DNA of 64,000 nt from positions 10,858-74,857 of the forward strand of contig CAYYFR010000005.1 in assembly GCA_964470865.1 (NCBI GenBank), read 5' to 3'. The position numbers and the translations under genes are program-made. The notes beneath the pieces were generated by a model. It was not told the origin of the DNA. It searched no databases and saw only the letters and a list, made by a program, of their open reading frames with translations. This document shows, one piece after another, positions 6,795 to 26,100 of the stretch (positions are counted from its first letter, which is position 1; every line of letters starts with the position of its first letter). The DNA is from an uncultured Burkholderiales bacterium (GTDB lineage Bacteria > Pseudomonadota > Gammaproteobacteria > Burkholderiales > JAEUOS01).

Positions 6795-8477
6795 ATGTAC
6801 CGTTACGACAAAGTCGACCAGACCCTGGTCGAACAACGGGTCGCACAGTTTCGCGACCAGACGCGCCGCTATTTCGCCGGCGAACTCGCCGAAGAGGAGT
6901 TCCGCCCGCTGCGCCTGCAAAACGGCTTGTACCTGCAGCGCCATGCGCCGATGCTGCGGGTTGCCATCCCGTATGGGTTGCTGGCAGCCGCGCAGTTGCG
7001 CAAGCTGGCTTCGATCGCGCGCACTTACGATCGCGGTTACGGCCACTTCACCACGCGCCAGAATGTCCAGTTCAACTGGCCGCGCCTGGAAGACGGGCCG
7101 GACATCCTGGCCGAGTTGGCAACGGTCGAAATGCATGCCATCCAGACCTCCGGCAACTGCGTGCGCAACACCACCTCCGACCAGTTCGCCGGGGTGGCGC
7201 ACGACGAGATCGTCGATCCGCGGCCTTATTGCGAACTGATCCGCCAATGGTCGACCTTTCACCCGGAATTCGCCTATTTGCCGCGCAAGTTCAAGATCGC
7301 CGTTTCGTCCTCTCTCGAAGACCGAGCGGCTACATTTGTGCACGACATCGGGTTGCACATAATCCGCAATGGCGCCGGCGAAATCGGTGCCCGCGTGATC
7401 GTCGGCGGCGGCCTCGGCCGCACACCGGTGATCGGCACGGTGATCCGCGAATTCATCGCGCGCGCGGAACTGATCAACTACCTCGATGCCATCCTGCGCG
7501 TCTACAACCGCTTCGGGCGCCGCGACAACAAGTACAAGGCGCGCATCAAGATCCTGGTGCGCGAACTGACGCCCGCCAGGTTCGCCGCCGAAGTCGAAGC
7601 TGAATGGGCGCACCTGCAAGGCGGATCCGCGCTCGTGCCGGATGCGGAGTTCGAGCGCATCGAATCCTTCTTTACAGCGCCGGCCTATGAAACCCTGGCA
7701 CAGGCCGACGCCGGTTTCGAGCGCAACAAGGCCCTTGACCGAGGCTTTGCGCGCTGGGTCGCGCAAAATACCTTCGGCCACAAGGTGCCAGGCTATGCTG
7801 CGGTGACCCTGTCGCTCAAGGCGCCCGGGGTGCCGCCAGGTGACGCTACTGCCGGGCAAATGGAGGCCGTGGCAGACTTGGCAGAGCGCTTTTCCTTCGG
7901 CGAAGTGCGCGTTTCCCACGAACAGAACCTGATCCTGGCCGACGTGCGAAAGGCCGACCTCCACACCGTGTGGCAGGAAGCGCGCAAGGCCGACCTGGCC
8001 ACTTCCAACATCGGCCTCATCACCAACATCGTGTGCTGCCCGGGTGGCGACTTCTGCTCGCTGGCGAACGCCAAGTCGATTTCCGTCGCAGCCGACATCC
8101 AGGCGCGCTTCGAGGACCTCGACTACGAGTACGACTTGGGGCCGATCGACCTGAACATCTCCGGCTGCATCAACGCCTGCGGCCACCACCATGTCGGTCA
8201 CATCGGCATCCTCGGTGTCGACAAGGATGGTTCGGAGTGGTACCAGGTGACCCTGGGCGGCTCGCAAGGCAGCAATGCGGCCATCGGCAGGATCATCGGG
8301 CGTTCGTTCGCCGCCAACGAGATCGCCGCTGCGATCGAAAAGATCATCGACGTCTATGTCGAATCGCGCCACGTCCACAACGACCTGAGCGAACCCTTGG
8401 TCGACACCGTGCGACGGATCGGTCTCGAACCGTTCAAGGCGCGCGTCTACGCAAGCCCCGCACTGAAGGTGGCATGA
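6795..8477 (+). CDS. cysI: Assimilatory sulfite reductase hemoprotein (nitrite/sulfite reductase family)
   Basis: ORF 6747-8477, start set to ATG 6795 (MYRYDKVDQ) with AGGA 7 nt upstream. Siroheme/4Fe-4S cysteine clusters VCCPGGDFCSLA and SGCINACGHHHVGHIG. Followed by DUF934 and cobA. Confidence 0.9.
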   Translation: MYRYDKVDQTLVEQRVAQFRDQTRRYFAGELAEEEFRPLRLQNGLYLQRHAPMLRVAIPYGLLAAAQLRKLASIARTYDRGYGHFTTRQNVQFNWPRLEDGPDILAELATVEMHAIQTSGNCVRNTTSDQFAGVAHDEIVDPRPYCELIRQWSTFHPEFAYLPRKFKIAVSSSLEDRAATFVHDIGLHIIRNGAGEIGARVIVGGGLGRTPVIGTVIREFIARAELINYLDAILRVYNRFGRRDNKYKARIKILVRELTPARFAAEVEAEWAHLQGGSALVPDAEFERIESFFTAPAYETLAQADAGFERNKALDRGFARWVAQNTFGHKVPGYAAVTLSLKAPGVPPGDATAGQMEAVADLAERFSFGEVRVSHEQNLILADVRKADLHTVWQEARKADLATSNIGLITNIVCCPGGDFCSLANAKSISVAADIQARFEDLDYEYDLGPIDLNISGCINACGHHHVGHIGILGVDKDGSEWYQVTLGGSQGSNAAIGRIIGRSFAANEIAAAIEKIIDVYVESRHVHNDLSEPLVDTVRRIGLEPFKARVYASPALKVA

Positions 8478-9011
8478 ATGAGCAATCGCATGATCCTTGA
8501 CCGCAAGATCACCGACGACCATTGGCGATTGATCGAAACCGGAGAAGCCGTTGCCGCCAACGGCGACATCATCGTGCCGCTCGCGCTGTGGCTGGACCAA
8601 CGCGCGCAATTGACCGCTCGCAGCGGGCGCAGCGGCGTCTGGCTGGCACCCGGCGACGAGCCTCGCCTGCTGGCTGCCGATACCGGCATCCTGCCCCTGA
8701 TTGCGCTGCGGTTTCCGCAATTTGCCGATGGTCGCGGTTACTCGAGCGCTCGCCTGCTGCGCCAACGTTACGGATTCGCCGGCGAACTGCGCGCCATCGG
8801 CGAGGTGCTGCGCGACCAGCTGTTCTATCTTGAGCGGGTCGGCTTCAACGCCTTCGCCATCAAGCCGGGCAAGAGCATCGAAGACGCGCTGGATGGCTTT
8901 GGCGACTTCTCGGACGCATACCAGGCGTCAGCGATGCAGCCGGCACCGCTTTATCAGCGTCGCCTGCAGAGCCAGGACCAAGCCGGCCTGGCGAGCGTGG
9001 CTGCGCCATGA
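8478..9011 (+). CDS. DUF934-family protein (sulfite-reductase-associated)
   Basis: 177 aa. The ATG immediately follows the cysI TGA. Central motif FPQFADGRGYSSARLLRQRYGFAGELRAIGEVLRDQLFYLERVGFNAF is typical of DUF934 as I recall it. Confidence 0.85.
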   Translation: MSNRMILDRKITDDHWRLIETGEAVAANGDIIVPLALWLDQRAQLTARSGRSGVWLAPGDEPRLLAADTGILPLIALRFPQFADGRGYSSARLLRQRYGFAGELRAIGEVLRDQLFYLERVGFNAFAIKPGKSIEDALDGFGDFSDAYQASAMQPAPLYQRRLQSQDQAGLASVAAP

Positions 9012-9090
9012 GCGCCGCCGCCCGGCCGCCCGAAGGCAGCGCTCATCCACCCGCGGGGAGGATGTCACGCAGTCGCAGGAAGGTAGTGCG

Positions 9091-9879
9091 ATGAGTGGAA
9101 CCGTCTACCTGGTCGGCGCCGGCCCCGGCGCACCGGACTTGATCACACTGCGCGCGGCTCGCCTGATCGAAGCCGCGGAGATTGTTTTCCACGACGCGCT
9201 GGTACACCCCGACACTTTGGCATTGGCCACCCGCGCCGAGAAAATCGCGGTAGGCAAGCGCTGCGGCGCCCACTCCACCGCGCAGCGCTTCATCAACAAG
9301 CGCCTGATCGACGCCGCCGGCAAGCATGCAAGCGTGGTGCGCCTGAAAGGTGGCGACCCGATGCTGTTCGGCCGTGCTCAGGAAGAGATCGACGCCCTCA
9401 CCGCAGCCGGCATCCGCGTTGAAATCGTGCCTGGCGTGACCGCAGCGCAGGCCGCCAGCGCGGACCTGGGCGTTTCGCTGACGCGTCGCGGCATCAGTCG
9501 CTCGGTCGCATTCGCAACACCTCGTGTAGGCAGCGAGGAACAGCCATCCGAATGGGCCGCCAGCCTGGCGCATGCCGATACGGCGGTGCTCTACATGGCT
9601 GCGCACCAGGCACGCCAGGTCGCCGCCACCCTTATGGGCCTGGGCCGGCGCGGCGATTCTCCGGTGGCGATCGTCGAATCGGCCTCACTTGAAAGCACGC
9701 AAAGTTACACCACCCTTGGCGAACTGGCACGGCAGGGCCTGGAGCCCGGCACAGGCCCGACCATTCTGATGTTTGGAGAGGTGTTCCGCGCCGCAATGTC
9801 AGCGGCACGCCTGCAAAGGCGCAGCCCGACAAGCGGCAGCTGGCGGCAGCTGGCGGGAAACCTTGCGCAAACCTGCTGA
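9091..9879 (+). CDS. cobA: Uroporphyrinogen-III C-methyltransferase (SUMT)
   Basis: ORF 8701-9879, trimmed to ATG 9091 (MSGTVYLVGAGPGAPDLITLRA) with AGGAAGG upstream. Also RLKGGDPMLFGR and VPGVTAA motifs. Confidence 0.9.
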   Translation: MSGTVYLVGAGPGAPDLITLRAARLIEAAEIVFHDALVHPDTLALATRAEKIAVGKRCGAHSTAQRFINKRLIDAAGKHASVVRLKGGDPMLFGRAQEEIDALTAAGIRVEIVPGVTAAQAASADLGVSLTRRGISRSVAFATPRVGSEEQPSEWAASLAHADTAVLYMAAHQARQVAATLMGLGRRGDSPVAIVESASLESTQSYTTLGELARQGLEPGTGPTILMFGEVFRAAMSAARLQRRSPTSGSWRQLAGNLAQTC

Positions 9880-12893: not shown

Positions 12894-13736
12894 CTAAGCC
12901 GCGATCGCGTCAGCCAGGCCGCCCCTTGCCGGCAGCACCGAAGCAATCGCCGCGCCGGCCTGGCTGCTCCACACCTCGGCGCCGTCAACCAGCACCTTGA
13001 GTTCGTTGCGCGAAAAGCGCGTCCACGTCTCGCCATGGGTGAGCGGCTCGGTAGCCACCAGAACCATATGGTCTTGCGTGCGATTGGCCTCGCTCAGATT
13101 GATACTGAGATCGTGATCCACCAGCTTGACACGGGGAAACGGATGCCGGCGCGCCATCCAGGTGAGATCGGTGGCGCAGTGGGCGAACAGGGCTTCGCCG
13201 TTGCCCATGAGAAAGTTGAACACGCCATGCGCGGCTACCCGAGGTGTCAATTCGGCCAACGCGTAGGCGATCTGCTGCCAACCGGGGCGCCCGGATGCAC
13301 CAAACCGTGCGCGCAGTTCCTGCAGCAGCCAGCAGAACGCGCGCTCGCTGTCGGTGCTGCCGACCGGTTCGAAATCACCATTGAGGCGCGGCTGGAAATC
13401 ACCTAGATCGCCGTTGTGGCAAAAGGTCCAGTGCCGCCCTTTCCATTCGCGCACAAACGGATGGCAATTCGACAAATGCACCTGTCCCTGGGTGGCTTTG
13501 CGAATGTGCGCCAGAACGATGCGCGAGCGGATCGGGTTGTTGCGCAAAAACTCCGCCAGAGGCGAGTCACTGGCACGCCGCTCGTCGATGAACACCCGAC
13601 AGCCGCTTGCATCATGAAAGGCGATACCCCAGCCGTCGACGTGTTCCCCGGTCCGACCACCGCGCGCCGAGAAGCCGGTAAACGAAAACGTCACCGCGGT
13701 AGGTGCGCTGCTGGAAAGGGCGAACAACTGGCACAT
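12894..13736 (-). CDS. Class II (Ntn) glutamine amidotransferase, YafJ-like
   Basis: ORF 12894-13760, trimmed to MCQLFALS (13736) so that Cys2 is the N-terminal nucleophile. Also GWGIAFHD and SNCHPF motifs. Confidence 0.85.
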   Translation of the reverse strand: MCQLFALSSSAPTAVTFSFTGFSARGGRTGEHVDGWGIAFHDASGCRVFIDERRASDSPLAEFLRNNPIRSRIVLAHIRKATQGQVHLSNCHPFVREWKGRHWTFCHNGDLGDFQPRLNGDFEPVGSTDSERAFCWLLQELRARFGASGRPGWQQIAYALAELTPRVAAHGVFNFLMGNGEALFAHCATDLTWMARRHPFPRVKLVDHDLSINLSEANRTQDHMVLVATEPLTHGETWTRFSRNELKVLVDGAEVWSSQAGAAIASVLPARGGLADAIAA

Positions 13737-13861: not shown

Positions 13862-15415
13862 TCAAAGCGCGCCGGTCGCACCCTTGCCGCCGAAGCGCTG
13901 CCTGAGATCCGCCTTGAGCACCTTGCCCAGCGCACTCTTGGGCAGAGCGTCCACAAAGGCGAAGCGTCGCGGAATCTTGTAGCCGCCGATAGCGCCGCGG
14001 CAGTGTGCAATCAGCCCGGGAGCATCGAGTGTCACACCAGGTTTGGGAATGACCACCGCGAACACCGCCTCGCCATAGGTTTCGTCCGGCACGCCGATCA
14101 CCGCCGCCTCGGCAACACCGGGATGCGTGAACAGGGCCGCTTCAACCTCCGACGAATAGACGTTTTCGCCGCCAGTCACGATCATGTCCTTCTTGCGGTC
14201 GAGCAGGTACAGAAACCCTTCCCCGTCTTCACGGCCGATGTCACCGGTATGGAACCAGCCGTCGCGAAAGGTCTCGCGGTTGGCCTCCGGCAAACCGTAA
14301 TACCCCGGCGTGACATTCGGGCCGCGCACGATCACCTCACCCGAGGCGCCGCTCGGTACCTCGCGGCCGGCGTCGTCGACGATGCGCAGATCGACGCCCG
14401 GCAGCGTCTTCCCGGCGCATGCCAGGCGTGCCGTATTGCCGCTGGCGAGCGCCTCCAGATGGTGGCGATGTTCGAAGAACGAGAGGATCGGCGCGGTCTC
14501 GGTCAGACCGTAGCCTTGCGTGACGCTGGTCGCGGGCAAGGCTTCCAGGGCACGCCGGATCCAGGTCTCGGCCATGGGTGAACTGCCATACACCTGGATA
14601 CGCAACGAAGACAGGTCGAACTTCGCGAAATCCGCATGCTGCAGCACCATGATCAGCATGGTCGGGGCCAGCATGGTGAAGCTGACCCGATGCCGCTCGA
14701 TCGCCGCCAGGAACGCCGTCGGGTTGAACTCCGGCAGATAGACGTGGGCGCCGCCGGTCAGGGTGAGGGCAGACCCGAGCAAGTCCGCCGAATGGAACAT
14801 CGGGGCGACGTGCAGGTAGATGTCGTCGTGCCGGATACCCAATGTGAGGCCGACCTGCAATCCGTTGCATGCGATGTTGCGGTGGGTGAGGCGAACCCCT
14901 TTGGCACGCCCGGTGGTACCCCCGGTGTAGAGCAGGATCGCGTCGTCATTTTCGTCGGCATCGCGTGGCGGAAGTGCAGCGGCGGAATCGATCAGATCAT
15001 CATGCGAGCGCCGACCGGCGCCGTTTGCACCGAGCACGAAAGCATGCTCTCGCCAGGGTGCGAGCTCATCGCGGTCCAGCAGCGCCAACAACAGTGGATC
15101 GATGGCGAGCAGCGCACAGTCTGCGTCCTTGAGCACAAACGCAATCTCGCGCGGCGCCAATCGAACGTTCACCGGCACCGGAATCACACCCGACCAGTAG
15201 CCCGCATGCAGCAATTCGGCCTGGCGAAACGAGTTGCGCGAAACAATGCCGATGCGCGCCCCCGGTGCCAGGCCCATTTTGAGCAGTGCACCGGCAAGGC
15301 ATGCCACCCGGTGGACGTGCTCCGCCCACGAATGGATGCGCTCGGGTTCAATGATTGCCGGCCGGCTGGCGTGTTGACGACGCGCGCGTTGCAGCGCCGA
15401 AGACATCGAGAGCAT
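13862..15415 (-). CDS. Adenylate-forming acyl/aryl-CoA ligase (ANL superfamily), paralogue 2
   Basis: ORF 13862-15760, trimmed to ATG 15415 (MLSMSSAL), 13 nt after the upstream stop. Motifs LLYTGGTTGRAKGV, GYGLTETA, WFHTGDIG, DRKKDMIVTGGENVYS, PKSALGKVLK. Confidence 0.9.
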   Translation of the reverse strand: MLSMSSALQRARRQHASRPAIIEPERIHSWAEHVHRVACLAGALLKMGLAPGARIGIVSRNSFRQAELLHAGYWSGVIPVPVNVRLAPREIAFVLKDADCALLAIDPLLLALLDRDELAPWREHAFVLGANGAGRRSHDDLIDSAAALPPRDADENDDAILLYTGGTTGRAKGVRLTHRNIACNGLQVGLTLGIRHDDIYLHVAPMFHSADLLGSALTLTGGAHVYLPEFNPTAFLAAIERHRVSFTMLAPTMLIMVLQHADFAKFDLSSLRIQVYGSSPMAETWIRRALEALPATSVTQGYGLTETAPILSFFEHRHHLEALASGNTARLACAGKTLPGVDLRIVDDAGREVPSGASGEVIVRGPNVTPGYYGLPEANRETFRDGWFHTGDIGREDGEGFLYLLDRKKDMIVTGGENVYSSEVEAALFTHPGVAEAAVIGVPDETYGEAVFAVVIPKPGVTLDAPGLIAHCRGAIGGYKIPRRFAFVDALPKSALGKVLKADLRQRFGGKGATGAL

Positions 15416-15428
15416 GGACTCTCCCCGC

Positions 15429-15779
15429 TCAGGTGGAGCCTGAGGCCTTTGCCGCCTTGGCGCGATCGATGTACTTCTTGGTCGCATAAGCAACGCCGCT
15501 TTCGGCATAGCCCTTGCAAGCGCGATCCTTGAACTCGAGCGCGCGCTCCCATTCATCCACCGGGTAATACTCGCGTTCGGCCACGCAGCGAATTTCTCGT
15601 ACAACGCGCTCTTCGATGCCGAGCTTTTCGGCAATCTGGCGATCGGAAAAACCCGGCTGGCGCTTCTCCGGCGGCAGGTGCTCGGGATAGTTGATCTGGA
15701 TCGCCTGCGACATCGACAACACCTGTTCCTTGTACTGCCGGTACAGCTCGGGATCGACAAAATAGAAACCCATTCGCAT
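15429..15779 (-). CDS. Small hypothetical protein with a helix-turn-helix-like segment
   Basis: 114-116 aa. GGGAG is placed best for the second ATG (15773). The segment FSDRQIAEKLGIEERVVREIR resembles a sigma-r4/LuxR-type HTH. No family recognised. Confidence 0.6.
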   Translation of the reverse strand: MRMGFYFVDPELYRQYKEQVLSMSQAIQINYPEHLPPEKRQPGFSDRQIAEKLGIEERVVREIRCVAEREYYPVDEWERALEFKDRACKGYAESGVAYATKKYIDRAKAAKASGST

Positions 15780-15898
15780 GCTCCCTAAGAAAACCCTGAA
15801 ACAGTCCCCGTATCGCGGACTCGCGGACGGCAGTCTGGAATCAAATCAAGACCATGCAAAAGCGACTCGTGTTCCATACGGACTTATGCGGCGTTTCG

Positions 15899-16765
15899 TC
15901 AAAGCAAATTGCGCTGCGTGGAGCCGACCGGGCACACCCTCATGCATTCGAAGCACTGACCCTGGCTCACATTCGAGTACGACATCGACCACAAAGTGCG
16001 GGTGAACTGCGAGGAATAGAGGATCATCTTGCGCTTCTCCTTTTCCGGCTCGTCGAACACCGCTTCCAGCGCCTTCTGAAAGCCCGGGATGAACGAGGTT
16101 TGCACGCGGGTGGTGCAGCGCGCAACATCATAGCGACGCTCCTTGACGCGGCCGCCCTCGAGCTTGCCGCCAAGACACCCACCATCGTCGATCGGGCAGG
16201 TCGCCATGCACGGCGTGGTGCCCAACTCATCCCACATCGAGACACACTCGGGTGCGGGACAGGCCGGTGTCGAAAGCGGCGCGTCCACCGGCAAGGGCAA
16301 GGTGGTCAGCACGGCGGTGTAATACATGAAGCCGAATTGCGGATGCAATACCGGCCCGGCCAGGCTCGGCGAACCGCAGCCCGCAAGTTCGGCGGCAAGC
16401 GCGATGTTCAAGAACGGCCGGCGCGCCCGGTCCACGCCCGGCGGGATGGTGACCGCGTAATAGCCGAAGCGCCGTTCGATGTGCTGCGCGATGCGGTTAC
16501 CCATCGCGGTGACGCGGTCGGAGGTCGAGGTCGTTTCCATGTGGCGATAGCTCGGGCTGGCCCAGTCGCCGGCGCGCGGCTGGGCGCCGCCAAGCACGAA
16601 TACGGTTTTGCAACCCGGCAGCAGTTCGCCCGGGCGCTGTCCCTCCATGGCTGCGGTGAACGCGTTGGCGTCCGCCACACCCGACACCAGTGCCCCGGCC
16701 TTCTTCGCCAGTTCGCCCAGCTCGCGCTTGTGGGCTTCCATCAGGTCCAGATCCGCTGCGCTCAT
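15899..16765 (-). CDS. RdhA/QueG-superfamily Fe-S protein, short paralogue B
   Basis: 288 aa. The ATG overlaps the upstream TGA (ATGA). Collinear with paralogue A and with the core of the 19225-20487 protein. Cys pattern CPAPEC-x11-C-x3-C-x6-C ... C ... CFECMRVCPVG. Confidence 0.8.
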   Translation of the reverse strand: MSAADLDLMEAHKRELGELAKKAGALVSGVADANAFTAAMEGQRPGELLPGCKTVFVLGGAQPRAGDWASPSYRHMETTSTSDRVTAMGNRIAQHIERRFGYYAVTIPPGVDRARRPFLNIALAAELAGCGSPSLAGPVLHPQFGFMYYTAVLTTLPLPVDAPLSTPACPAPECVSMWDELGTTPCMATCPIDDGGCLGGKLEGGRVKERRYDVARCTTRVQTSFIPGFQKALEAVFDEPEKEKRKMILYSSQFTRTLWSMSYSNVSQGQCFECMRVCPVGSTQRNLL

Positions 16766-17673
16766 TTGAGCTTCCTTTCAGCCCGGCCGATCGGGCATAC
16801 GCGCATGCATTCGAAGCACTGCGCCACACTTTCCTTGTAGAAGGCGATGGCCGACGCCGAACGGGTAAAGAAGTCGGAGTGGATCATCATGCGGCGGCGC
16901 TCGTCATCATCTTCGTTGGCGATCTGCTCCAAGGCCTTCTGGAAACTGTTGATGCCGAAATTCATCGCACGCGAAACGCAGCGCTCGCGATCGTAGTAGG
17001 TCGATTCAATCCGGTTGTCCGGGCCGATCGTCCCGTGCAGGCAGCCGCCGTCGTCCGACGGGCAGGCCGCCTGGCAGGGTGTCCTGCCGCCGGCCTTGTA
17101 GACCTGCACGCACATCGGCGCCGGGCACACGTCCTGCTCCAGCATCGGATCGACCGGCAACGTAAGCGTGGTCAGGCAAGCGGAGTAATACAGCAGGCCG
17201 TACTGCGGATTGAGGATGATGTTGGCGGCGAACGAACGCGTGCCCAGACCTGCAAGCACCGCCGCCAGCATCATCGAGAACGCCGGCTGATGCCCGCCCA
17301 CCGGCAGGCCCGGCGCCTGGATCGCCTGGTAACCGTATTCCTGCTCGATGTGGTCGGCCACCAGATGAATCACGCGATCGTTGGCGAAGTCGTAGCCGTT
17401 CATCTCGATCAGCCGGTGGTCCGGTGACTGCCATGCACCGGCCGAAGGGCCGCGCACGCCGACCACCACCACCGACTTCGCGCCCGGCAGGATGTCGTAG
17501 GGCCGCGAGCCTGGCGGCACGAATTCGTCCCAGCGCTCGACCGGTGCGATGCCCACCACATCCACACCGGATGTCAGTGCGAGCTTGCGGAGTTCGTCGG
17601 CACGCGCCATCGCGATGGCCGTTTCCGCGTCGGGGGCCAGCGCCGCACGTACCAGCTCAGCCAGATTGGACAT
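16762..17673 (-). CDS. RdhA/QueG-superfamily Fe-S protein, short paralogue A
   Basis: ORF 16762-17823, trimmed to ATG 17673 (MSNLAEL, GGGAGA upstream); 17-nt overlap with the ligase stop. GVDVVGIAP, AKSVVVVGV, AGLGTRSFAANII. Cys pattern CPAPMC-x11-C-x3-C-x6-C ... C-x53-CFECMRVCPIG. Confidence 0.8.
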   Translation of the reverse strand: MSNLAELVRAALAPDAETAIAMARADELRKLALTSGVDVVGIAPVERWDEFVPPGSRPYDILPGAKSVVVVGVRGPSAGAWQSPDHRLIEMNGYDFANDRVIHLVADHIEQEYGYQAIQAPGLPVGGHQPAFSMMLAAVLAGLGTRSFAANIILNPQYGLLYYSACLTTLTLPVDPMLEQDVCPAPMCVQVYKAGGRTPCQAACPSDDGGCLHGTIGPDNRIESTYYDRERCVSRAMNFGINSFQKALEQIANEDDDERRRMMIHSDFFTRSASAIAFYKESVAQCFECMRVCPIGRAERKLK

Positions 17674-19228
17674 GGTGTTTCTCCCGCAGACTGGACCGTC
17701 GGAGCTCACCCTTGAGCACCTTGCCCAGCGCGCTCTTGGGTAATTGATCAACAAACTCGAAGCGACGCGGCACCTTGAACCCTCCGAGGTATGCCCGGCA
17801 GTATGCGGCAATCTCTTCGGCACTGGGCCGCATTCCCGGCTTTGCCACGATCACCGCCGTGACCATTTCCCCCAGGCGCTCATCCGCAACGCCTACGATC
17901 GCCGCCTCGGCGATGGCGGGATGACGATGCAGCACGGCCTCCACTTCGGAAGAATAGACATTCTCGCCACCGGTGATCACCATGTCCTTGAGGCGATCCA
18001 GCAGGTAAACATACCCTGCGGCGTCGATACGTGCCACATCGCCAGTGTGCAGCCAGCCGTCGCGCAGGGCTGCGCGCGTTTCCTCGGGACGGTGGTGATA
18101 GCCCTTCATGATGTTCGGGCCGCGCGCGATCAATTCACCCGCTGCGCCCGGCGCAACCTCGCTCCCATCCGGCGCCACCACCCGCAACTCATTGTGCGCA
18201 TTGGGCTTGCCGACCGAAAGCAGCGGCCCGTCGCGCTCACCGGTGACTGCCATGTGTTCGATGGCGGAGCGAAACTCGCGCGAATTGAAAATCGTGAGAT
18301 CGGGCGCGGTCTCGGTCATGCCGTAGCAATTGAACAGCTCAACAGCGGGAAACGCACCCGCGACCCGTTCGATCCATTCAAGCGGCAGCGGCGCTGCGCC
18401 ATAGATCAGAACCCGCAACGACGAAACATCGGCCGCCGCGAACTCAGCGCAGGAAACAGTGCCGATCAGCATGGTCGGCACCGTTACCACCGCGCCGACC
18501 CGATGGTATGCGATGGCCTGAAGGAAGGCCTGGGGTGAGAACATCGGCAAGAAACACTGCGCGGCCCCCTGCAGGAACCAGCCCATTGCCAGCAGGTCGG
18601 CCGAATGGAACATCGGTGCTGCATGCAGGTACACATGTTCGGGTCGCGCACCCACTGCAAGGCCAAACGCCAGGTTGTTGGACAGAATATTGGTGTGCGA
18701 CAAGCGCACACCCTTGCTGCGGCCGGTGGTACCCCCGGTGTAGAGCAACAGTGCGTCCGCATCCGCATCGGGATCGCTCGCGGCAATCGGCGCTGTCTCG
18801 GCAAGCATCGCTTCGTAGGCGGCCGCGTTGGCGCCGGCACTTTCGCCAAAGATGGTGATGCGGGCGCGCCAGGCGGCAAGAGCAGGATGTTCAAACATCG
18901 GCGCAAACACGCTTTCCACCATGACGCAGGTGCATTGCGCATCTTCGAGAATCTGCAGAAGCTCCGGCGCGGCCAGGCGAAAATTGAGCGGTACCGGAAT
19001 CGCACCGAGCCAGAAACCGGCCCACTTGAGTTCTTCGAAGCGAAAGCCGTTGCGCGCAAGAATGCCGAAGCGTTCATCGGGCAATGCGCCCAGGCGCCTG
19101 AGCATGCCGGCAGCACGTGACACCCGCACCCCGAATTCGGACCATGTGTAGGTTCGTGCAGTGTCCTGCATGGCCGGCCGCGGGCCGTGGTGCCGTACCG
19201 TCGAGGCGAGCGCCCTGACCAGATTCAT
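17657..19228 (-). CDS. Adenylate-forming acyl/aryl-CoA ligase (ANL superfamily), paralogue 1
   Basis: ORF 17657-19471, trimmed to ATG 19228 (MNLVRAL), which forms an ATGA overlap with the upstream stop. Motifs LLYTGGTTGRSKGV, CYGMTETA, WLHTGDVA, DRLKDMVITGGENVYS, PKSALGKVLK. Confidence 0.9.
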   Translation of the reverse strand: MNLVRALASTVRHHGPRPAMQDTARTYTWSEFGVRVSRAAGMLRRLGALPDERFGILARNGFRFEELKWAGFWLGAIPVPLNFRLAAPELLQILEDAQCTCVMVESVFAPMFEHPALAAWRARITIFGESAGANAAAYEAMLAETAPIAASDPDADADALLLYTGGTTGRSKGVRLSHTNILSNNLAFGLAVGARPEHVYLHAAPMFHSADLLAMGWFLQGAAQCFLPMFSPQAFLQAIAYHRVGAVVTVPTMLIGTVSCAEFAAADVSSLRVLIYGAAPLPLEWIERVAGAFPAVELFNCYGMTETAPDLTIFNSREFRSAIEHMAVTGERDGPLLSVGKPNAHNELRVVAPDGSEVAPGAAGELIARGPNIMKGYHHRPEETRAALRDGWLHTGDVARIDAAGYVYLLDRLKDMVITGGENVYSSEVEAVLHRHPAIAEAAIVGVADERLGEMVTAVIVAKPGMRPSAEEIAAYCRAYLGGFKVPRRFEFVDQLPKSALGKVLKGELRRSSLREKHHVQSG

Positions 19229-20487
19229 TTGGAGCGAAACTGCTGCCAGAACCGGGCGGGCTTCATGCGCTCGCCGAACTTGAGCTTGACATCGAGCCAC
19301 AGCGCCAGCTTCTTGAAAGGTGAAGCCGCCAGCCGTTGCCAGGCACGGTAATACCAGCGCGACCACCAGCGCGAGATGTCCTTGTTGTAGGGGCAAACAC
19401 GCATGCAGATACCGCATTCGGTCGCCTGGTTGACCCAGAACTTGAAGCATTTTTCCGCATCGATCTGCCACTTGCGAATGCCGATGATCGAGGACTGGTT
19501 GGGAATCACCTCGGTGGGCGGGCCCTGCGGAATCGCTTTCGGCGGGCAGGCATCGGCGCAGCGGCGGCAGGTTGTATCGCAGAACTCGCGCACGCCGAAC
19601 CTGATCGGCTCATCATGGTCAAGCGGCATGTCGGTATGGATCCGGCCGATTCGCACGCGCGGACCGAAGTCCTTGGTGATCAGAAGCCCGTTGCGGCCAT
19701 ACTCTCCCAGCCCGGCCTGGATCGCATAGGGAATCGCCAGCGATGAGTCGTTGACACTGGCAATCGCGCGATAACCCAGGTTGAGAATGTAGGTGGCGAT
19801 GCTTTGCACCAGTTCGCAGTCGCGCGAGTAGCCATGGCCCACGGCGATGCCGGCGGTAGCCGAGGGATAGCACTTGACGGCGTCGTAGTGCATCGCTGTG
19901 ACGATCACGATCACGTTGGGCAAACCTTCCGGAATCGAGTAGGGTTTCTCGGCCAGGGCCTTGGTTGCAAAACTGTGCGTGTAATGCCAGCGCGGATCGG
20001 AATGGGTGATGCCAACCCCGTCAGCCCCGAACAGGCGACTGACACGCTTGATCTCTTCGGCCATGGCAGCCGGCGACTCGACCGCTACCTGTTCCGCGCT
20101 GGGCTCCGAATAAGGCTGGATATAGTCGAGAAAACCATCGACCCGACCCTGGTGCAGGCTGCGCTGGATGGTCAGGTTGGCGCCCATCCAGCCGGCATTG
20201 CGCAAGGCGAAGTCGCGTACCGAATAGCCATCCGCGTTGCGCGCGCCCAGGCCGGGCTTGAACATGCCCTTGAACCAGTTGAGCACCTTCTCCGAGCGGA
20301 TCCGCGAATCCCACTGGCCGCGCGTGTAGATGTCGTTGGACTGGTTGAAGCGTTCGAAGGTATCGAGCACCTCGAAGCCGCAGGCTTCGTCCTTGGCATG
20401 CCGGAGCGCGGCCTTCAGGCGATAGGGCCCCTCGTTCCGCGGTTGCCGCTCCTGCGTCAACCGCCCCATTTCCTCAAGCGCACCCAT
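19225..20487 (-). CDS. Reductive dehalogenase (RdhA)-family protein, cytoplasmic type (no Tat signal)
   Basis: ORF 19225-20613. The predicted promoter (20557-20585) would start transcription near 20550, inside the longer ORF, so the start is set to ATG 20487 (MGALEEMGRL, GAAGG upstream). C-terminal Fe-S motifs CDTTCRRCADACPPKAI and C-x12-CGICMRVCPYN, preceded by an AGLGEYGRNGLLIT core typical of RdhA/QueG. Confidence 0.8.
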   Translation of the reverse strand: MGALEEMGRLTQERQPRNEGPYRLKAALRHAKDEACGFEVLDTFERFNQSNDIYTRGQWDSRIRSEKVLNWFKGMFKPGLGARNADGYSVRDFALRNAGWMGANLTIQRSLHQGRVDGFLDYIQPYSEPSAEQVAVESPAAMAEEIKRVSRLFGADGVGITHSDPRWHYTHSFATKALAEKPYSIPEGLPNVIVIVTAMHYDAVKCYPSATAGIAVGHGYSRDCELVQSIATYILNLGYRAIASVNDSSLAIPYAIQAGLGEYGRNGLLITKDFGPRVRIGRIHTDMPLDHDEPIRFGVREFCDTTCRRCADACPPKAIPQGPPTEVIPNQSSIIGIRKWQIDAEKCFKFWVNQATECGICMRVCPYNKDISRWWSRWYYRAWQRLAASPFKKLALWLDVKLKFGERMKPARFWQQFRSK

Positions 20488-20539
20488 GGCGAACCCTTCA
20501 CGAATTGCCTGTCGCGGGAACTTCTGTCCGCCTCGGCCC

Positions 20540-20556
20540 GGTACCTGACAAGTACC
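20540..20556. promoter_or_regulatory. 17-bp near-perfect palindrome abutting the -10 of the rdhA-like promoter (candidate TetR operator)
   Basis: GGTACCTGACAAGTACC: 7 of 8 arm positions pair around a central A. It covers the predicted transcription start of the minus-strand operon. Confidence 0.4.
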
Positions 20557-20585
20557 AGAATATAACGTTGGTTCAGTATCGTCAA
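20557..20585 (-). promoter_or_regulatory. Sigma70-type promoter of the rdhA-like operon
   Basis: Minus strand: TTGACG (20585-20580), 17 nt, TATTCT (20562-20557). Confidence 0.55.
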
Positions 20586-20635: not shown

Positions 20636-20664
20636 TTGACACGGGAAATTCCGCAACCTATACT
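20636..20664 (+). promoter_or_regulatory. Sigma70-type promoter of the tetR/TRAP-SBP unit
   Basis: TTGACA (20636-20641), 17 nt, TATACT (20659-20664). It lies back-to-back with the rdhA-like promoter, with the two -35 boxes about 50 bp apart. Confidence 0.6.
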
Positions 20665-20676
20665 CGAAATAATTCT

Positions 20677-20686
20677 AACGATCGTT
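20677..20686. promoter_or_regulatory. Perfect 10-bp palindrome AACGATCGTT just downstream of the tetR promoter (candidate autoregulatory site)
   Basis: Read directly from the sequence. It sits about 6-15 nt after the predicted start site. 8-bp inverted arms TTGAACGA (20624-20631) and TCGTTCAA (20682-20689) bracket the promoter. Confidence 0.3.
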
Positions 20687-20693
20687 CAACGAC

Positions 20694-21404
20694 TTGAGAA
20701 CCTCACCGGCAACTTCGAAGTTGGCCAACAAGCCTACCGCCGGCCAGGCCCAGCGGCGCGACGAGTTCTTGCGCGCCGCAGCCGATGTGTTTGCCGAGCG
20801 TGGATATCACGGCGCCGGCATGCGCGAAATCGCCGATCGCTGCGGCGTACAACCGGCAGCGCTTTACTATTACTTTCCATCCAAGGCCAGCATTCTTGAG
20901 GCGATCTGCTATTACGGCATCACGCAGTTCGTCGAACGCCTCGCGGCGATACAGGCAGCGGCGCTTCCGGTCGAGGACAAGGTTCGTCAGGCCGTGCGTG
21001 CGCACCTCGAACCCCTGCTCGAAAACCGCTTCTATGTCCATGCCTTCCTGTTTCAGCGCCGCGAGTTGCCTGCGGCGGTGCGGCGACCGCTTGACACGCT
21101 GGCGCGCAACTATGAGGATTTGTGGCATGCGCTCCTGGTTGAAGGCCAGACCCGCGGCGTGATCGCCAGGGAAATTGACCGCAAGCTCACCGTACTGGCC
21201 ATTTTGGGCATGTGCAACGCCGTTGCCCGCTGGTCCGGCGTCGCCGCCGACCAGGGCCTGGACGCGGTTGCCACCACCTTCACCCGATTGATTTCATCCG
21301 GGCTGTTTGCCGATCGAGCCGAAACTACCAGGCCTGACCTGAGTCTGGTCAACACAAAACAGCGCCGCAAGCGTGCTGCCAACCGAGGAGAAAACTCATT
21401 ATGA
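20694..21404 (+). CDS. TetR/AcrR-family transcriptional regulator
   Basis: HTH region RRDEFLRAAADVFAERGYHGAGMREIADRCGVQPAALYYYFPSKASIL. The only in-frame starts ahead of the HTH are TTG 20694 or TTG 20721, so the start is uncertain. Confidence 0.85.
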   Translation: MRTSPATSKLANKPTAGQAQRRDEFLRAAADVFAERGYHGAGMREIADRCGVQPAALYYYFPSKASILEAICYYGITQFVERLAAIQAAALPVEDKVRQAVRAHLEPLLENRFYVHAFLFQRRELPAAVRRPLDTLARNYEDLWHALLVEGQTRGVIAREIDRKLTVLAILGMCNAVARWSGVAADQGLDAVATTFTRLISSGLFADRAETTRPDLSLVNTKQRRKRAANRGENSL

Positions 21405-22426
21405 AAAGTACTTTTCGCGCCTTGATCGCCGTCATTGGGGCGTCGATACTAGCCGCCGCACCTGCGGCATCCCAAACCATTCTGGATCTGAGCTCCTGGG
21501 TACCCGCCAGCCATCCTCTGGTTGCCGAGATGACTGTGCCGTACTGCAAGGAGATCGAGGCCGTTACGCAGGGGCGGGTGAGTTGCCGCATGCTGGCCAA
21601 ACCGGTTGCCAACCCGCCCGGCACCTTCGACGCGATTCGTGACGGCGTGGCCGATATCTCGTTCATGGTGCATGGCTACACGCCGGGGCGTTTTCCGCTG
21701 GCCGAAGCGGTCGAACTTCCGTTCATGGCCGATTCGGCCGAGGTGATGTCGGTCGCCTATCAGCGGATCTACGAGCGCCTGCTTTCCAGATACGACGAGC
21801 ACAAGGGCGTACTCACGCTCGGCGTGTTTACCCATGGTCCTGGCCAGGTTTACAACTCGCGCCGACCGGTTGTCGCGATCAAGGATTTCGAAGGTCTCAA
21901 GTTGCGGATTGCCAGCGGGGTCGTCAGCGACGTGACCCGAGCCGTGGGTGCCACGGCGGTACTCAAGCCAGCCTCCGAAAGCTATGAACTGATTTCCTCG
22001 GGTATCGTCGACGGCACCATGCTGCCCAAGGAAAGCCCGGTAGGGCTCAATCTGATGCGTGTGATCAAGCATGTTACCTATGTCCCGGGCGGGCTGTACA
22101 ACGTCAGTTTCGCGCTGATCGCCAACCCGGCGAAATGGTTGCAGATTTCGCAGGCGGACCGCGACGCGATAGCCCGAATTTCAGGCGAAGCGCTCGCACG
22201 CCGCTTCGGTCGGGCATGGGATGCCGCCGATGGCCGCGGTCAGAAGGCCGTGGCGGAAAACAACATACAGGTGGTGAACGCCAGCCCGCAGCTGGTGACT
22301 GACCTCAAGGCACGCACCGCCGGCCTTGAACAGGCATGGGTGGAAAAGGTCAAGAGCAGAGGCGCGGATGGAAAGGCCATTTTGGACGCACTACGTAGCG
22401 AGATCACGGTTCTGCAGAGAAAATAG
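21401..22426 (+). CDS. TRAP-transporter solute-binding protein (DctP family); no DctQ/DctM genes adjacent
   Basis: 341 aa. Signal peptide MKSTFRALIAVIGASILAAAPAASQ. DctP-like body (GTFDAIRDGVADISF, AEAVELPFM). The ATG overlaps the tetR TGA (ATGA). Confidence 0.8.
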   Translation: MKSTFRALIAVIGASILAAAPAASQTILDLSSWVPASHPLVAEMTVPYCKEIEAVTQGRVSCRMLAKPVANPPGTFDAIRDGVADISFMVHGYTPGRFPLAEAVELPFMADSAEVMSVAYQRIYERLLSRYDEHKGVLTLGVFTHGPGQVYNSRRPVVAIKDFEGLKLRIASGVVSDVTRAVGATAVLKPASESYELISSGIVDGTMLPKESPVGLNLMRVIKHVTYVPGGLYNVSFALIANPAKWLQISQADRDAIARISGEALARRFGRAWDAADGRGQKAVAENNIQVVNASPQLVTDLKARTAGLEQAWVEKVKSRGADGKAILDALRSEITVLQRK

Positions 22427-22718: not shown

Positions 22719-23045
22719 ATGACCCACATCGTCACCGAACCCTGCATCAAGTGCAAATATACCGATTGCGTCGACGTCTGCCCGGTGGATTGCTTCCGCG
22801 AAGGGCCGAACATGCTGGTGATCGACCCCGACGAATGTATCGATTGCGCGGTGTGCATTCCCGAATGCCCGGTCAACGCGATCTATGCCGAGGAAGACGT
22901 GCCGGACGGCCAGAAGCACTTCTACGATCTCAATGTCGAACTGGCCAAGGCCTGGAAGTCGATCACCAAGACCAAGGGCCCGCTGGCGGATGCCGAGGAC
23001 TGGAAAGACAAGGCCGACAAGCTGCCGCTCCTGGACCGGGGTTAA
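22719..23045 (+). CDS. fdxA: 7Fe ferredoxin (Azotobacter FdxA type)
   Basis: 108 aa. [18 protein letters not shown] and [16 protein letters not shown] are the classic [3Fe-4S][4Fe-4S] pattern. Confidence 0.95.
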
Positions 23046-23109: not shown

Positions 23110-26100
23110 ATGCTCAATCTGGCCTTTGACCTGCAATTTCCTGATCTTTACAACCTGCCCGGGCTTTCCCGGGTCGACGCGGCCTTTCTCGCGCACCTGG
23201 CGGAGTCCGACATGGGCTTGCGGGCCAGGCTAGGTGAAGCGCGCAAGAATCCCGCGGCCCAAGATGCCAGGGCCGAGTCGGAGTTGTTGCTGGACTTGAG
23301 CCCGCACATGGACGATTTTCTGGGCCAGCTCTTCGGCATTTCGGCCGAAGTAAGCGCCCTGGCCGAACGCCACCATGAACTGGCGCCGCTGTTCGAAGTC
23401 AAGCGCCAGTTCGTGCAGCGCAAGGCCGCCAAGACCCATGATGCGGTGGCGGCCGCAAGCTTTGACGGCGCCGCCCTTGGTGCCGAACTGGGCAGCCTGT
23501 TAGGCGCTGCCGCAAGCGATGTCGCTGCCTTCGAACTGGCGTTCGCGCGCCAGGTGAAGCGCTGGCAAGCCGACGAAACCGGCTTTGCCGGTAGCCTCGA
23601 CCTGGCACTCAAATATGCTGCCTGGGCCCTTTTGACTGAAGCTGGCGCGCACCACCACGCCCCCGGCGTGCTGTTCAAGGCGCCGCGCAAGATCGACCCG
23701 CTGACCGTGATCGATCACGCCATCGAGCGCCGCCAAGTCGACGGCACCACCACCTTCACCATCAAGCCTGCGCATATTCGCCGCCGCCAGGGCTTCAAGC
23801 TGACCGACGCCGGCACCGATCTGACAGGCGCCCTGGACCAGGCCAATTACTGTATCTGGTGCCACAAGCAGGGCAAGGATTCGTGCTCCACCGGGCTCAA
23901 GGAAAAGCCGGCGGCCGACGGCGGCGTAGCTTTCAAGCGCACCGTTTTCGGTGTGCGCCAGGCCGGCTGCCCACTGGAAGAAAAGATCAGCGAGTTCCAT
24001 ATGGCCAAGGTGGCCGGCAACGCCATTGGCGCCCTGGCCATCATCGCGGTGGACAACCCGCTGGCCGCCGCCACCGGGCACCGCATCTGCAACGATTGCA
24101 TGAAATCATGCATCTACCAGAAGCAGGAACCGGTCAACATACCGCAAGCCGAGACCCGCACCCTGAAGGACGTGCTGGAACTGCCCTGGGGCTTCGAGAT
24201 CTATTCGCTCCTGACGCGCTGGAACCCGCTCAATCTCAGGCGCCCATTGCCGGCTGTCCCGAGCGGCTACAAGGTACTGGTGGCGGGCATGGGCCCGGCC
24301 GGATTCGGCCTGTCGCACAACCTTCTGAATGACGGCCACACCGTGGTCGGCATCGACGGCCTGAAAATCGAACCGCTTGCGCAATCGCTTTCCGGCGTGC
24401 GCCTGGATGGTTCGCGCACCGCGTTCGAGCCGATTCGCGATTTCGCCGAGATCAAGGAAGAACTCGACGAACGCACCATGGCCGGATTCGGCGGTGTTGC
24501 CGAATACGGCATCACGGTGCGCTGGGACAAGAGCTTTCTCAAGGTGATACGCCTGCTGCTCGAGCGTCGAGCGGAGTTCGCGCTGTTTGGCGGCGTACGC
24601 TTTGGCGGCACCGTCACCCTCGATGATGCGTGGGCGCTGGGATTCGACCATGTCGCGCTGGCCATCGGTGCCGGCCGCCCGACAGTCCTCGACATTCCCA
24701 ACGGCTTTGCGCGCGGCGTGCGCACCGCCTCCGATTTTCTGATGGCGCTGCAACTGACCGGCGCAGCCAAGGCCGATTCCATCGCCAACATGCAGTTGCG
24801 CCTGCCGGTGGTGGTGATCGGCGGCGGCTTGACCGCGATCGACACCGCCACCGAGTCACTGGCCTACTACCAGGTACAAGTGGAAAAGTTTCTCGCGCGC
24901 CACGAGATCCTGGTCAAGGAACAGGGCATCAGCGCGGTGCGCGCCGCCTGGCGCGACGAAGAACGCGAAGTCGCGGAGGAGTTTCTGGCACATGCGCGCG
25001 CGATTCGCGCCGAGCGTGAGACCGCCGCGCGCCAGGGCCGCGAGCCGCGCGTAATCGAGTTGCTCAGGAACTGGGGCGGCGTGACCATTGCCTACCGCAG
25101 GCGCTTAGTCGACAGCCCGTCCTACACCCTCAATCACGAGGAAGTGGAGCTTGCCCTGCAGGAAGGCATCAGCTTCGCCGAAGGCCTGACGCCCAAGCGC
25201 GCCGACATCGACAACTACGGTGCGGTCAAGGGCATGGCGTTCGCCCGCAGTCGCATCAAGGCCGATGGCAAGTTCGAAGGCGATGGCGACACCTGGCTGC
25301 CGGCACACACCGTGTTCGTGGCCGCCGGCACCCAGCCGAACACGGTGCTGGCGCGCGAGGGCGACGCTGCCGCACGCGCGCAATTCAAGGTCGACGGCAA
25401 GTATTTCGCCGCCTGTGATGAAGACGGCCAAGCGCTCAAGCCTGAAAGCTCGATCTCGAAGCCGCGCAAGGCCGACGTGCTGCTAGCGAAAACCGCCGAC
25501 GGCCGTTTTGTCTCTTATTTCGGCGATGTCCATCCTTCGTATTTCGGCAACGTCGTCAAGGCACTGGGTTCCGCCAAACAGGGTTTCCCGGTGGTCACGC
25601 GCGTGCTCGCGCAGCGAGCGCCGTCGCTCTGCGCAGCGGCCAGTGCGGGCGCGGCGCATGGCGTCACTCACCCCAATCCATTCATCGCCCACCTGAACTC
25701 CGACTGGCGTGCCACGGTTCATGAGGTTGTCCGACTCACACCCACCATCATCGAAGTGGTGATCAAGGCGCCGGCTGCGGCGCGCAAGTTCGAGCCCGGC
25801 CAGTTTTACCGGCTGCAAAACTTCGAATCACTGGCGCCTTTTGTCAAGGACACGCGCCTGCAAATGGAAGGCCTGGCAATGACCGGCGCCTGGGTCGACC
25901 GCGAGGCCGGCCTGGTCTCGACCATCGCGCTTGAAATGGGCGGTTCGTCAAACCTGTGCGCCTCGCTCAAGCCCGGTGAAGCGGTGATCCTGATGGGCCC
26001 GACCGGCGCGCCCACCCACATCGTGCCCGACCAGACCGTAGCCCTGGTTGGCGGCGGCCTCGGCAATGCCGTGCTGTTCTCGATCGGCCAGGCGTTCCGC

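Follow-up and report, generated by a model that had tools for sequence, protein, structure and literature searches.

Putative class-III corrinoid/Fe-S-fold proteins coupled to acyl-CoA ligases in an operon of an uncultured Burkholderiales bacterium

Which reactions would be served by an operon that appears to encode three proteins of the RdhA/QueG superfamily beside two coenzyme A (CoA) ligases? The question is raised by six packed genes on the minus strand of a 64,000-nt stretch of DNA from an uncultured Burkholderiales bacterium (contig CAYYFR010000005.1), which is called the window in the following. The genes encode an RdhA-like protein, ligase 1, two short paralogues designated A and B, a small protein C and ligase 2. 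A sequence-based annotation, here called the original prediction, had proposed an undescribed cytoplasmic corrinoid/Fe-S reductive pathway for CoA-activated acids. The analysis suggests, with a probability of about one half, that the operon is a TetR-controlled catabolic unit in which each of two modules would consist of an ANL ligase and a cytoplasmic class-III corrinoid/[4Fe-4S]-fold reductase acting on CoA-activated acids.

The RdhA-like protein and the short paralogues A and B

The 420-aa RdhA-like protein scores 174.5 bits with the NCBIfam reductive dehalogenase (RDH) model TIGR02486, above the cutoff of 160.35; the Pfam model PF13486 by itself stays under its cutoff (13.1 against 24.3). 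Against the PDB, its catalytic core matches PceA of Dehalobacter (8q4h, E=3e-50) and of Sulfurospirillum (4uqu, E=2e-42), with weaker matches to NpRdhA (E=2.5e-26) and QueG (E=3.5e-11). At the positions of PceA Tyr246, Asn272 and Arg305 the alignment likewise shows Tyr, Asn and Arg, and the protein has both Fe-S motifs (C-x3-C-x2-C-x3-CP and C...C-x2-C-x3-CP). No RR-hydrophobic motif of a twin-arginine translocation (Tat) signal is found in the N-terminus (MGALEEMGRLTQERQ) with either candidate start, nor in the family consensus, and there is no room for rdhB beside the gene, which has a 206-bp promoter region upstream and an overlapping gene downstream. The protein is placed in the cytoplasm because it has neither a twin-arginine motif nor space for rdhB, and the TIGR02486 score marks it as a true RdhA-family member. 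Both points agree with the original prediction, which had called the protein RdhA-like and had seen neither a twin-arginine signal nor an RdhB anchor gene; the N-termini and the flanking genes were checked for the latter. The family is large (2581 clusters at E<=1e-10), and many homologues of ~420 aa in metagenome-assembled genomes (MAGs) carry the NCBI name 'reductive dehalogenase'.

The cobalamin core, the two Fe-S motifs and the aligned Tyr/Asn/Arg are likenesses to the respiratory RdhA of the PceA type, from which the window RdhA differs by the missing Tat signal and RdhB anchor and by its coupling to an acyl-CoA ligase and a TetR regulator. NpRdhA and BhbA are catabolic, cytoplasmic and oxygen-tolerant, and their substrates are halogenated aromatic acids (PMC10463259, PMC12219181). 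Besides its match to the window RdhA, NpRdhA is among the fold matches of A (4ras and 6zy1 are the NpRdhA/BhbA entries). However, NpRdhA and BhbA have ~700 aa or more and a vestigial second cobalamin-like domain, which the window proteins of 288-420 aa lack. Their self-sufficient forms carry an NAD(P)H reductase domain that is absent from the window proteins; Pfam detects no reductase domain in the RdhA-like protein, and its NpRdhA match is confined to the NpRdhA core residues 345-575. They act on free acids, whereas the window proteins are paired with CoA ligases. By size, missing Tat signal and missing extra domain, and compared by description, the window RdhA resembles the 'simplified cytosolic' RdhA-like proteins of cold-seep metagenomes, a sequence-only group of ~395 aa that has no Tat signal and no vestigial domain and occurs mainly in Desulfobacterota and Chloroflexota (PMC12219181). 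Beta-oxidation genes and IclR/MarR regulators are reported near cytosolic rdhA-like genes, and a term search of the same text finds no mention of 'CoA' or 'ligase' (PMC12219181).

A comparison of A with B (hhalign E=7e-93, 41% identity) marks them as unambiguous paralogues, for which neither Pfam nor NCBIfam has a curated family. The profile check that the original prediction had proposed for all three proteins was positive for the RdhA-like protein, while A and B remain far below the RDH and QueG cutoffs: TIGR02486 gives 17.8 bits (E=2e-3) for A and 26.0 bits (E=7.6e-6) for B, and the QueG model TIGR00276 (cutoff 200) gives 19.1 bits (E=5e-4) for B and no match for A. Neither protein has a PF08331 (DUF1730) match or a HEAT tRNA-binding domain, and both end directly after the second Fe-S motif.

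A plain sequence search of the PDB with A gave no match, and a profile search reached only NpRdhA at E=0.25; homology was therefore established by fold search and profile-profile comparison. Profile-profile alignment (hhalign) to the RdhA-like protein gave E=1e-6 with 91% probability for A and E=4.5e-5 for B, and reproduced the collinear motif matches described in the original prediction. In a Foldseek search of the PDB with the AlphaFold (AF2) model of A, matches 1-46 are all QueG, PceA or NpRdhA (E 1e-6 to 4e-3; TM-scores ~0.4-0.5), followed by the B12-processing protein MMACHC. The top three PDB entries for the profile of B are PceA (0.011) and two QueG entries (0.098 and 0.45), and the fold of B is assigned from its 41% identity to A. 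The TIGR02486 and QueG matches are weak but recur consistently in A and B and in ten remote relatives, each time over the cobalamin core; of the A/B segments in common with RdhA and QueG, the best kept is the cobalamin-core motif region AGLG...N/H-P-x-x-G. Modelling and sequence comparison together place A and B in the RdhA/QueG class-III cobalamin fold superfamily, outside the RDH and QueG families proper. The fold that the original prediction assigned to all three proteins is thus supported by TIGR02486 for the 420-aa protein, and by Foldseek, hhalign and weak HMM (hidden Markov model) matches for A and B.

Nine Cys are conserved in both the A and the B family, laid out as C-x4-C-x11-C-x3-CP, two single Cys and C-x2-C-x3-CP, which would suffice for two [4Fe-4S] clusters. 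The Pfam Fer4 models may miss A and B because the first of these motifs is non-canonical. At the position of the catalytic Tyr of RdhA, A has Phe96 and B a gap or Asp, and at that of the Arg both have a Tyr (Tyr162 in A), the first of an invariant Tyr-Tyr, as far as low-confidence alignments allow these positions to be read. Weak alignments also bring A and B locally nearer to the G-S-Y-x-Y of QueG, which is G-L-L-Y-Y in A and G-F-M-Y-Y in B, than to the G-P-x-V-R of RdhA. Read in this way, the positions would speak against classical dehalogenase chemistry for A/B.

Among solved structures A comes closest to QueG (5d08, 5d6s; E=1e-6), which shares the cobalamin-core motif with A and B; like QueG, A and B form a highly conserved family, and such conservation would fit a single substrate. 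They differ from QueG in having no DUF1730 signature and no HEAT domain, in the first Fe-S motif, in forming a pair (presumably heteromeric) with a third small protein, and in being linked to ligases instead of queuosine genes. With PceA, A and B share the fold; unlike PceA, they appear from the low-confidence alignments to lack the Tyr and Arg, and they reach 18-26 bits against the cutoff of 160.

The A family comprises 722 homologue clusters, the best 120 of which have 64-94% identity, and its nine Cys are invariant. Of the 1103 representative proteins that an exhaustive profile search returned at E<=1e-3, 61 reach E<=1e-30. Many of the proteins found are single short relatives and some are tandem forms of 670-813 aa; all their QueG/RDH matches are sub-threshold. 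The tandem forms (P0427, P0434, P0439, P0454, P0462, P0473, P0481 and P0484) hold two to five A/B-profile stretches each, and a Pfam scan of four of them found Fer4 matches in all four and QueG_DUF1730 in three. They appear to be tandem multi-domain QueG-like proteins. A 600-aa protein, P0362, was considered as a natural A-B fusion and rejected: it has Arg-rich out-of-frame stretches and has lost cysteines, and is therefore probably the product of neighbouring A and B genes run together by a frameshift in the assembly. It is not counted as evidence for an A/B heterodimer.

The A-B-C cassette and the RdhA-ligase module

A distribution scan with one genome per species found a relative of A in 370 species genomes (~0.2%), almost all of them MAGs. 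The hosts of the cassette belong to Gamma-, Alpha- and Betaproteobacteria, Acidobacteriota, Planctomycetota, Myxococcota and Candidatus Entotheonella, and one isolate, Halieaceae WSDMB12, carries it. Counted over the 80 best A loci, A is followed by B in every one, with an ATGA-type overlap in 24, and of the 74 loci with room for C, 73 have it immediately behind B (median gap 17 nt). Between phyla, each of the three proteins keeps 55-75% identity. A ligase like ligases 1 and 2 adjoins A-B-C in 44 of the 80 loci and a PaaK-like AMP-binding protein in ~12 more, mostly alphaproteobacterial with one from Terriglobia; a ligase is adjacent in at least 55 of the 80, drawn from at least three ANL subfamilies. 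An RdhA of >45% identity occurs at only eight of the 80. Clustering of neighbour genes leaves A, B, C and ligases as the only broadly recurring ones. On these counts the conserved unit is A-B-C (with a ligase) and not the six-gene set, and since A-B-C mostly occurs without RdhA, a pathway in common with RdhA is not obligatory. Two loci deviate in their layout: a Planctomycetaceae locus (L087) has A and B with no detectable C, and a Thermoanaerobaculia locus (L088) has ~2.8 kb inserted between A and B.

The small protein C has 190 homologue clusters, all close relatives, and no family in Pfam or NCBIfam. Its homologues begin at MGFYF, which makes 15773 the probable start in the window. The AF2 model is all-helical (pLDDT, the predicted local distance difference test, 75) with a short helix-turn-helix (HTH)-like segment; a fold search of the PDB found no significant match, the best being sigma region 4-like at E=1.5, and the JGI name of the protein is aMBF1-like. 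The original prediction had listed C as a small HTH-like protein. The near-invariant presence of C and a conservation equal to that of the enzymes point instead to a core member of the cassette and not to an accessory regulator. Fixed gene order, translational coupling and equal conservation make it most likely that A and B form a heteromer with C.

The HTH-like segment in C also bears on another explanation, by which A-B-C would be an RNA- or nucleoside-modifying analogue of QueG with C as its nucleic-acid-binding subunit. The leading fold matches of A are indeed QueG, and the G-x-x-Y-Y of A and B is QueG-like where RdhA has G-P-x-x-R. But DUF1730 and the HEAT tRNA-binding domain are missing from A and B, the TIGR00276 scores lie far below the cutoff, the cassette consistently keeps company with ANL ligases and genes of catabolism, and it occurs in very few species genomes, so that such a role is highly improbable.

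It is also conceivable, though unlikely, that A and B bind no corrinoid and carry Fe-S clusters only, acting as an electron-transfer or activating partner (e.g. for cytoplasmic RdhAs without a reductase domain) or as an MMACHC-like corrinoid-processing or chaperone factor. The weak similarity of A/B to B12-binding enzymes, the apparent lack of conservation of the RdhA catalytic Tyr and Arg in their alignments, the presence of MMACHC among the fold matches of A, the repeated occurrence of short paralogues beside Tat-less RdhAs that have no reductase domain, and the lack of a cobalamin riboswitch match in the window and 11 related loci would all agree with this. However, A-B-C stands with a ligase and without RdhA in 72 of the 80 species loci, the best-kept A/B segment is precisely the cobalamin-core region, and a sequence kept at 60-75% identity from phylum to phylum suits an enzyme with a specific substrate more than a general redox partner.

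The genes next to the cassette vary with the lineage. Gammaproteobacterial neighbours include NmrA, DUF6632, P450, Rieske oxygenases, isochorismatase, SnoaL-CDGSH and UbiD; other lineages have beta-oxidation-type genes, SDR, MFS and a luciferase-like monooxygenase. Between C and the ligase, gammaproteobacterial MAGs carry variable inserts (L002/L003 12092-13534; L037, L050, L056 and related loci), namely a UbiD-family decarboxylase, Rieske oxygenase alpha subunits, a SnoaL-CDGSH fusion, DUF3179 and DUF6632, and these loci are flanked by NmrA upstream and by P450, isochorismatase and Rieske genes downstream. Neighbour-gene clustering was also tried as a route to the substrate, and none can be named because the neighbours are lineage-specific.

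Both ligases carry AMP-binding PF00501 (E=3e-70 and 1e-77 for ligases 1 and 2) and AMP-binding_C PF13193 (2e-21 and 2e-22) and are 48% identical to each other, so that the original description of two paralogous adenylate-forming ligases stands; by their domains they belong to the ANL adenylate-forming acyl-CoA synthetase family. The nearest solved structure to ligase 2 is a feruloyl-CoA synthetase/fatty-acyl-CoA synthase (8wev/8weu, E ~1e-85). The best NCBIfam model, that of long-chain FadD (PRK06187), gives 421 and 457 bits, short of its cutoff of 476, and the substrate is not assignable since no named equivalog or subfamily cutoff is reached. CoA activation ahead of C-halogen cleavage is the principle of the FcbA/B/C pathway of 4-chlorobenzoate, which comprises a ligase, 4-chlorobenzoyl-CoA dehalogenase and a thioesterase. 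The window operon would resemble it in the conversion of an acid to a CoA thioester before cleavage, and 4-chlorobenzoate-CoA ligase is a relative of ligase 2 (E ~1e-49). In contrast, the Fcb dehalogenase is a hydrolytic enzyme of the crotonase family and not a corrinoid/Fe-S reductase, and no thioesterase was identified in the window operon.

The RdhA module was surveyed by a metagenome scan with the RdhA-family profile. RdhA homologues of at least 53% identity have a ligase of the ligase 1 type directly downstream in ~20 of the 23 metagenome loci with room, and likewise in L091; those of at least 73% identity also have a divergent TetR in every locus with room. The 52 marine homologues of at most 52% identity have neither ligase nor TetR. 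RdhA adjoins A-B-C in L011-L017, L045, L097 and L098, and stands directly beside it, without ligase 1, in L017 and in the gammaproteobacterial contig L045. The two are joined only in the Burkholderiales clade and two other lineages. Six loci (L094, L099, L107, L121, L123 and L124) have the order RdhA, ligase, single short paralogue, second ligase, which is the RdhA-Lig1-[A-B-C]-Lig2 pattern of the window; the single paralogue shares 32-39% identity with A and with B alike and matches both family HMMs (E ~1e-61 to 1e-66). The window operon is accordingly a fusion of a [TetR<>RdhA-ligase1] and an [A-B-C-ligase2] module, both of which are also found apart. The recurrence expected for the six-gene set was seen for its components (RdhA, ligases and short paralogue or paralogues), but the set itself is a lineage-specific fusion.

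The two modules could be only neighbours, an independent catabolic RdhA-ligase pair having been inserted beside an unrelated A-B-C-ligase cassette, with C as the transcription factor of the cassette and with neither a common pathway nor a ternary complex. The modules occur apart far more often than joined, TetR accompanies RdhA-ligase and not A-B-C, C has its HTH-like element and aMBF1-like name, and the B-C spacer in the window (15780-15898) is atypically long at 119 nt, or 125 nt if C starts at 15773, against the median of 17. This spacer has no unusual RNA structure (z=0.77) and no promoter-like match. On the other side, ligase 1 and A overlap by 17 nt with no internal promoter- or terminator-like site, the ligases are close paralogues, and RdhA has come together with A-B-C or with single paralogues in several lineages and in arrangements independent of one another (L017, L045, L093, L094, L107, L117 and L123). 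Upstream of A no k-mer is common to more than 13 of 78 loci (maximum of the shuffles, 11), and there is therefore no sign of a common C operator. The repeated origin of a Tat-less RdhA with short paralogue(s) and two ligases favours a functional connection over chance adjacency, which we consider improbable although by no means negligible.

A Chitinophagales-like contig (L095, 7001-8215 and flanks) carries an RdhA homologue of 57% identity beside a WelO5-type Fe/2OG halogenase; further neighbours are five PhyH-family genes, an AMP-binding protein, a 77-aa product without a Pfam match and KAS III. This locus hints at a link of the RdhA clade to naturally halogenated lipids or natural products.

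Operon map, regulation and flanking genes

All features are collected in Table 1. An open reading frame (ORF) listing reproduced every coordinate, overlap, gap and the gene order of the original prediction.

Table 1. Genes and sites of the operon and its flanks (positions in the window)
Feature	Position	Strand	Remarks
RdhA-like gene	19225-20487	minus	420 aa; first gene of the operon; ATGA overlap with ligase 1
Ligase 1 gene	17657-19228	minus	523 aa; 17-nt overlap with A
Short paralogue A	16762-17673	minus	303 aa; ATGA overlap with B
Short paralogue B	15899-16765	minus	288 aa; followed by 119-nt gap to C
Small protein C	15429-15779 (ORF)	minus	likely start 15773, 114 aa; 13-nt gap to ligase 2
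Ligase 2 gene	13862-15415	minus	517 aa; 125-nt gap to GATase_4 gene
GATase_4 class II amidotransferase-like gene	12894-13736	minus	PF13230, E=4.5e-102
Operon promoter	20557-20585	minus	-35 TTGACG, 17-nt spacer, -10 TATTCT; 9/12 matches
TetR-family regulator	20694-21404	plus	PF00440 E=2.5e-19, TetR_C_24, YsiA-like TetR_C_4; start 20694 or 20721
tetR promoter	20636-20664	plus	TTGACA-17-TATACT; 11/12 matches
Candidate operator 1, TGAACGATCGTTA	20676-20688	minus	palindrome just downstream of tetR -10
Candidate operator 2, TGAACCAACGTTA	20563-20575	minus	palindrome within operon-promoter spacer
DctP-type TRAP solute-binding protein, orphan	21401-22426	plus	PF03480; NF037995 TRAP_S1 61.8, cutoff 50
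FdxA ferredoxin, proteobacterial	22719-23045	plus	NF045490, above cutoff
GltD-like Fe-S flavoprotein	23110-26667	plus	1185 aa; PRK06567-like, below cutoff

The good sigma70 promoter of the original prediction was found again, and both of its hexamers are kept in the related loci L011-L013 and, with changes, in L097; taken by itself the site is no rarer than chance, as a consensus scan of the region gave 3 sites against 1.9 expected. The site scan found no terminator-like site between the operon genes or ahead of the amidotransferase gene, so that the latter, found as predicted at its distance downstream without an obvious terminator, is possibly co-transcribed with the operon. It cannot be kept as part of the gene set. 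Apart from four metagenome contigs that hold the window's own sequence with all genes 100% identical (L007-L010), it was detected elsewhere only in L014 (80% identity), and it lies outside the conserved set.

The divergent regulator matches best, among NCBIfam models, the acyl-CoA-sensing Bacillus FadR, below the cutoff. Both copies of the palindrome TGAACG-NN-CGTTA are conserved in an alignment of the rdhA-tetR intergenic regions of related species, and the pattern TGAACSNNCGTTA occurs twice in 64 kb, both times in the rdhA-tetR intergenic region (0.05 expected). The two palindromes are candidate TetR operators overlapping the divergent promoters. A 5-bp repeat after the -10 element, GGTAC-N7-GTACC, was rejected as an operator as it is not conserved.

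The DctP gene starts within tetR (4-nt overlap with its stop), and no DctQ/DctM membrane genes lie near it in the window. It is syntenic in Burkholderiales loci, and a 44%-identical copy follows ligase 2 in L017. FdxA and the GltD-like flavoprotein are possible electron donors; their synteny extends only within the Burkholderiales clade.

These flanks also weigh on a further explanation, namely that the locus is a biosynthetic or tailoring cluster in which acids adenylated by the ANL enzymes would end up in amides or esters and the reductases would tailor a (halogenated) natural product. It draws on the related RdhA beside a halogenase, PhyH-family oxygenases, an AMP-binding protein and KAS III in the Chitinophagales contig, on P450, Rieske and SnoaL genes in gammaproteobacterial neighbourhoods, and on the many hosts that seem to stem from sponge or coral samples (an impression from MAG isolate names alone), one of them Candidatus Entotheonella. 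Against it, the loci examined have no nonribosomal peptide or polyketide synthase, carrier protein or condensation domain near A-B-C; the FadR-type TetR, the TRAP binding protein and beta-oxidation-type neighbours (L005) suggest catabolism; and both ligases have the full C-terminal domain typical of CoA ligases. A biosynthetic role is consequently regarded as quite improbable.

The nearest genome to the window is a Burkholderiales MAG, whose A is 97% identical. The remainder of the window is housekeeping (sulfite reductase, topoisomerase IV, PurF-like amidotransferase, FolC-like Mur-ligase-family protein, a pyridoxal phosphate-dependent enzyme and an aconitase-family protein), and these genes give no functional clue to the operon. 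A siroheme-type sulfur assimilation cluster (sulfite/nitrite reductase, DUF934 and a uroporphyrinogen methyltransferase of the TP_methylase type) lies a few kb from the operon (window 6747-9879, plus strand; L007 17795-20879). Its tetrapyrrole methylation is for siroheme and is no evidence of B12 synthesis.

Proposed function of the operon and its meaning

The catabolic unit may be pictured as follows. A carboxylic acid would enter the cell, possibly aided by the DctP-type binding protein, and the neighbouring ligases would turn it into its CoA thioester. RdhA would reductively remove a halogen or another leaving group, and A-B-C would reductively cleave a C-X or C-O bond of a CoA ester in a second two-electron step, with an active site unlike that of dehalogenases (Phe in A and Asp in B for Tyr, Tyr-Tyr for Arg) and locally QueG-like. 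Ferredoxin may be the electron source. TetR would leave its two palindromic operators on binding an acyl-CoA or acid effector, and RdhA and A-B-C would perform successive reductive steps on related acids. A and B would each bind a corrinoid and two Fe-S clusters, and their substrates would be CoA thioesters made by the neighbouring ligases.

Several observations weigh against this proposal. In sequence, A and B are only marginally similar to class-III enzymes of solved structure (E=0.01-0.25), the model of A has only moderate confidence (pLDDT 65), and the first Fe-S motif departs from the canonical form. C, with its HTH-like segment, could be a regulator and not a subunit. Most A-B-C loci have no RdhA, and the genes past the ligase vary by lineage. 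No B12 transport or biosynthesis genes are among the recurrent neighbours of the cassette, and no Rfam match to a cobalamin riboswitch at the gathering score was obtained in the window and 11 related loci; the latter neither supports B12 regulation nor argues against it, and is uninformative on corrinoid binding.

Reductive dehalogenation and epoxyqueuosine reduction are, to our knowledge, the only types of reaction so far assigned to the class-III cobalamin fold. The chemistry of A-B-C is read as non-dehalogenating because the positions of the catalytic Tyr and Arg appear altered in the alignments, and a reductive elimination of another kind is favoured, with low confidence. The strong conservation of A-B-C, which is QueG-like, would fit one common substrate. 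Searches of Pfam, NCBIfam, the PDB and the literature found neither the A-B-C cassette nor RdhA-ligase operons described, in line with the original statement that no characterised pathway has this composition. What appears to be new is a family of putative class-III corrinoid/Fe-S-fold reductases with a new subunit composition and a new genetic context.

A more far-reaching and more doubtful proposal is that A-B-C represents a third functional class of class-III cobalamin enzymes. This would be a heteromeric, cytoplasmic, oxygen-compatible corrinoid/Fe-S reductase with a small subunit of its own that performs a non-dehalogenating reductive elimination on the CoA thioester of one widespread natural acid, e.g. 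deoxygenation of an epoxide or a beta-hydroxy group or another C-heteroatom cleavage. Its hosts would be uncultured marine, sediment, sponge-associated and soil bacteria.

For annotation, automatic labels such as 'QueG' or 'ferredoxin' are misleading for proteins of the A/B type. The cassette, three small genes and a ligase, is a clonable target for asking what else the class-III fold does, with practical footing in the one isolate that carries it and in an already published expression route for class-III cobalamin enzymes (PMC7585037). It could reveal how aerobic bacteria handle halogenated or otherwise activated acids as CoA esters, and the operon points to a third, unexplored branch of the B12/Fe-S reductase class.

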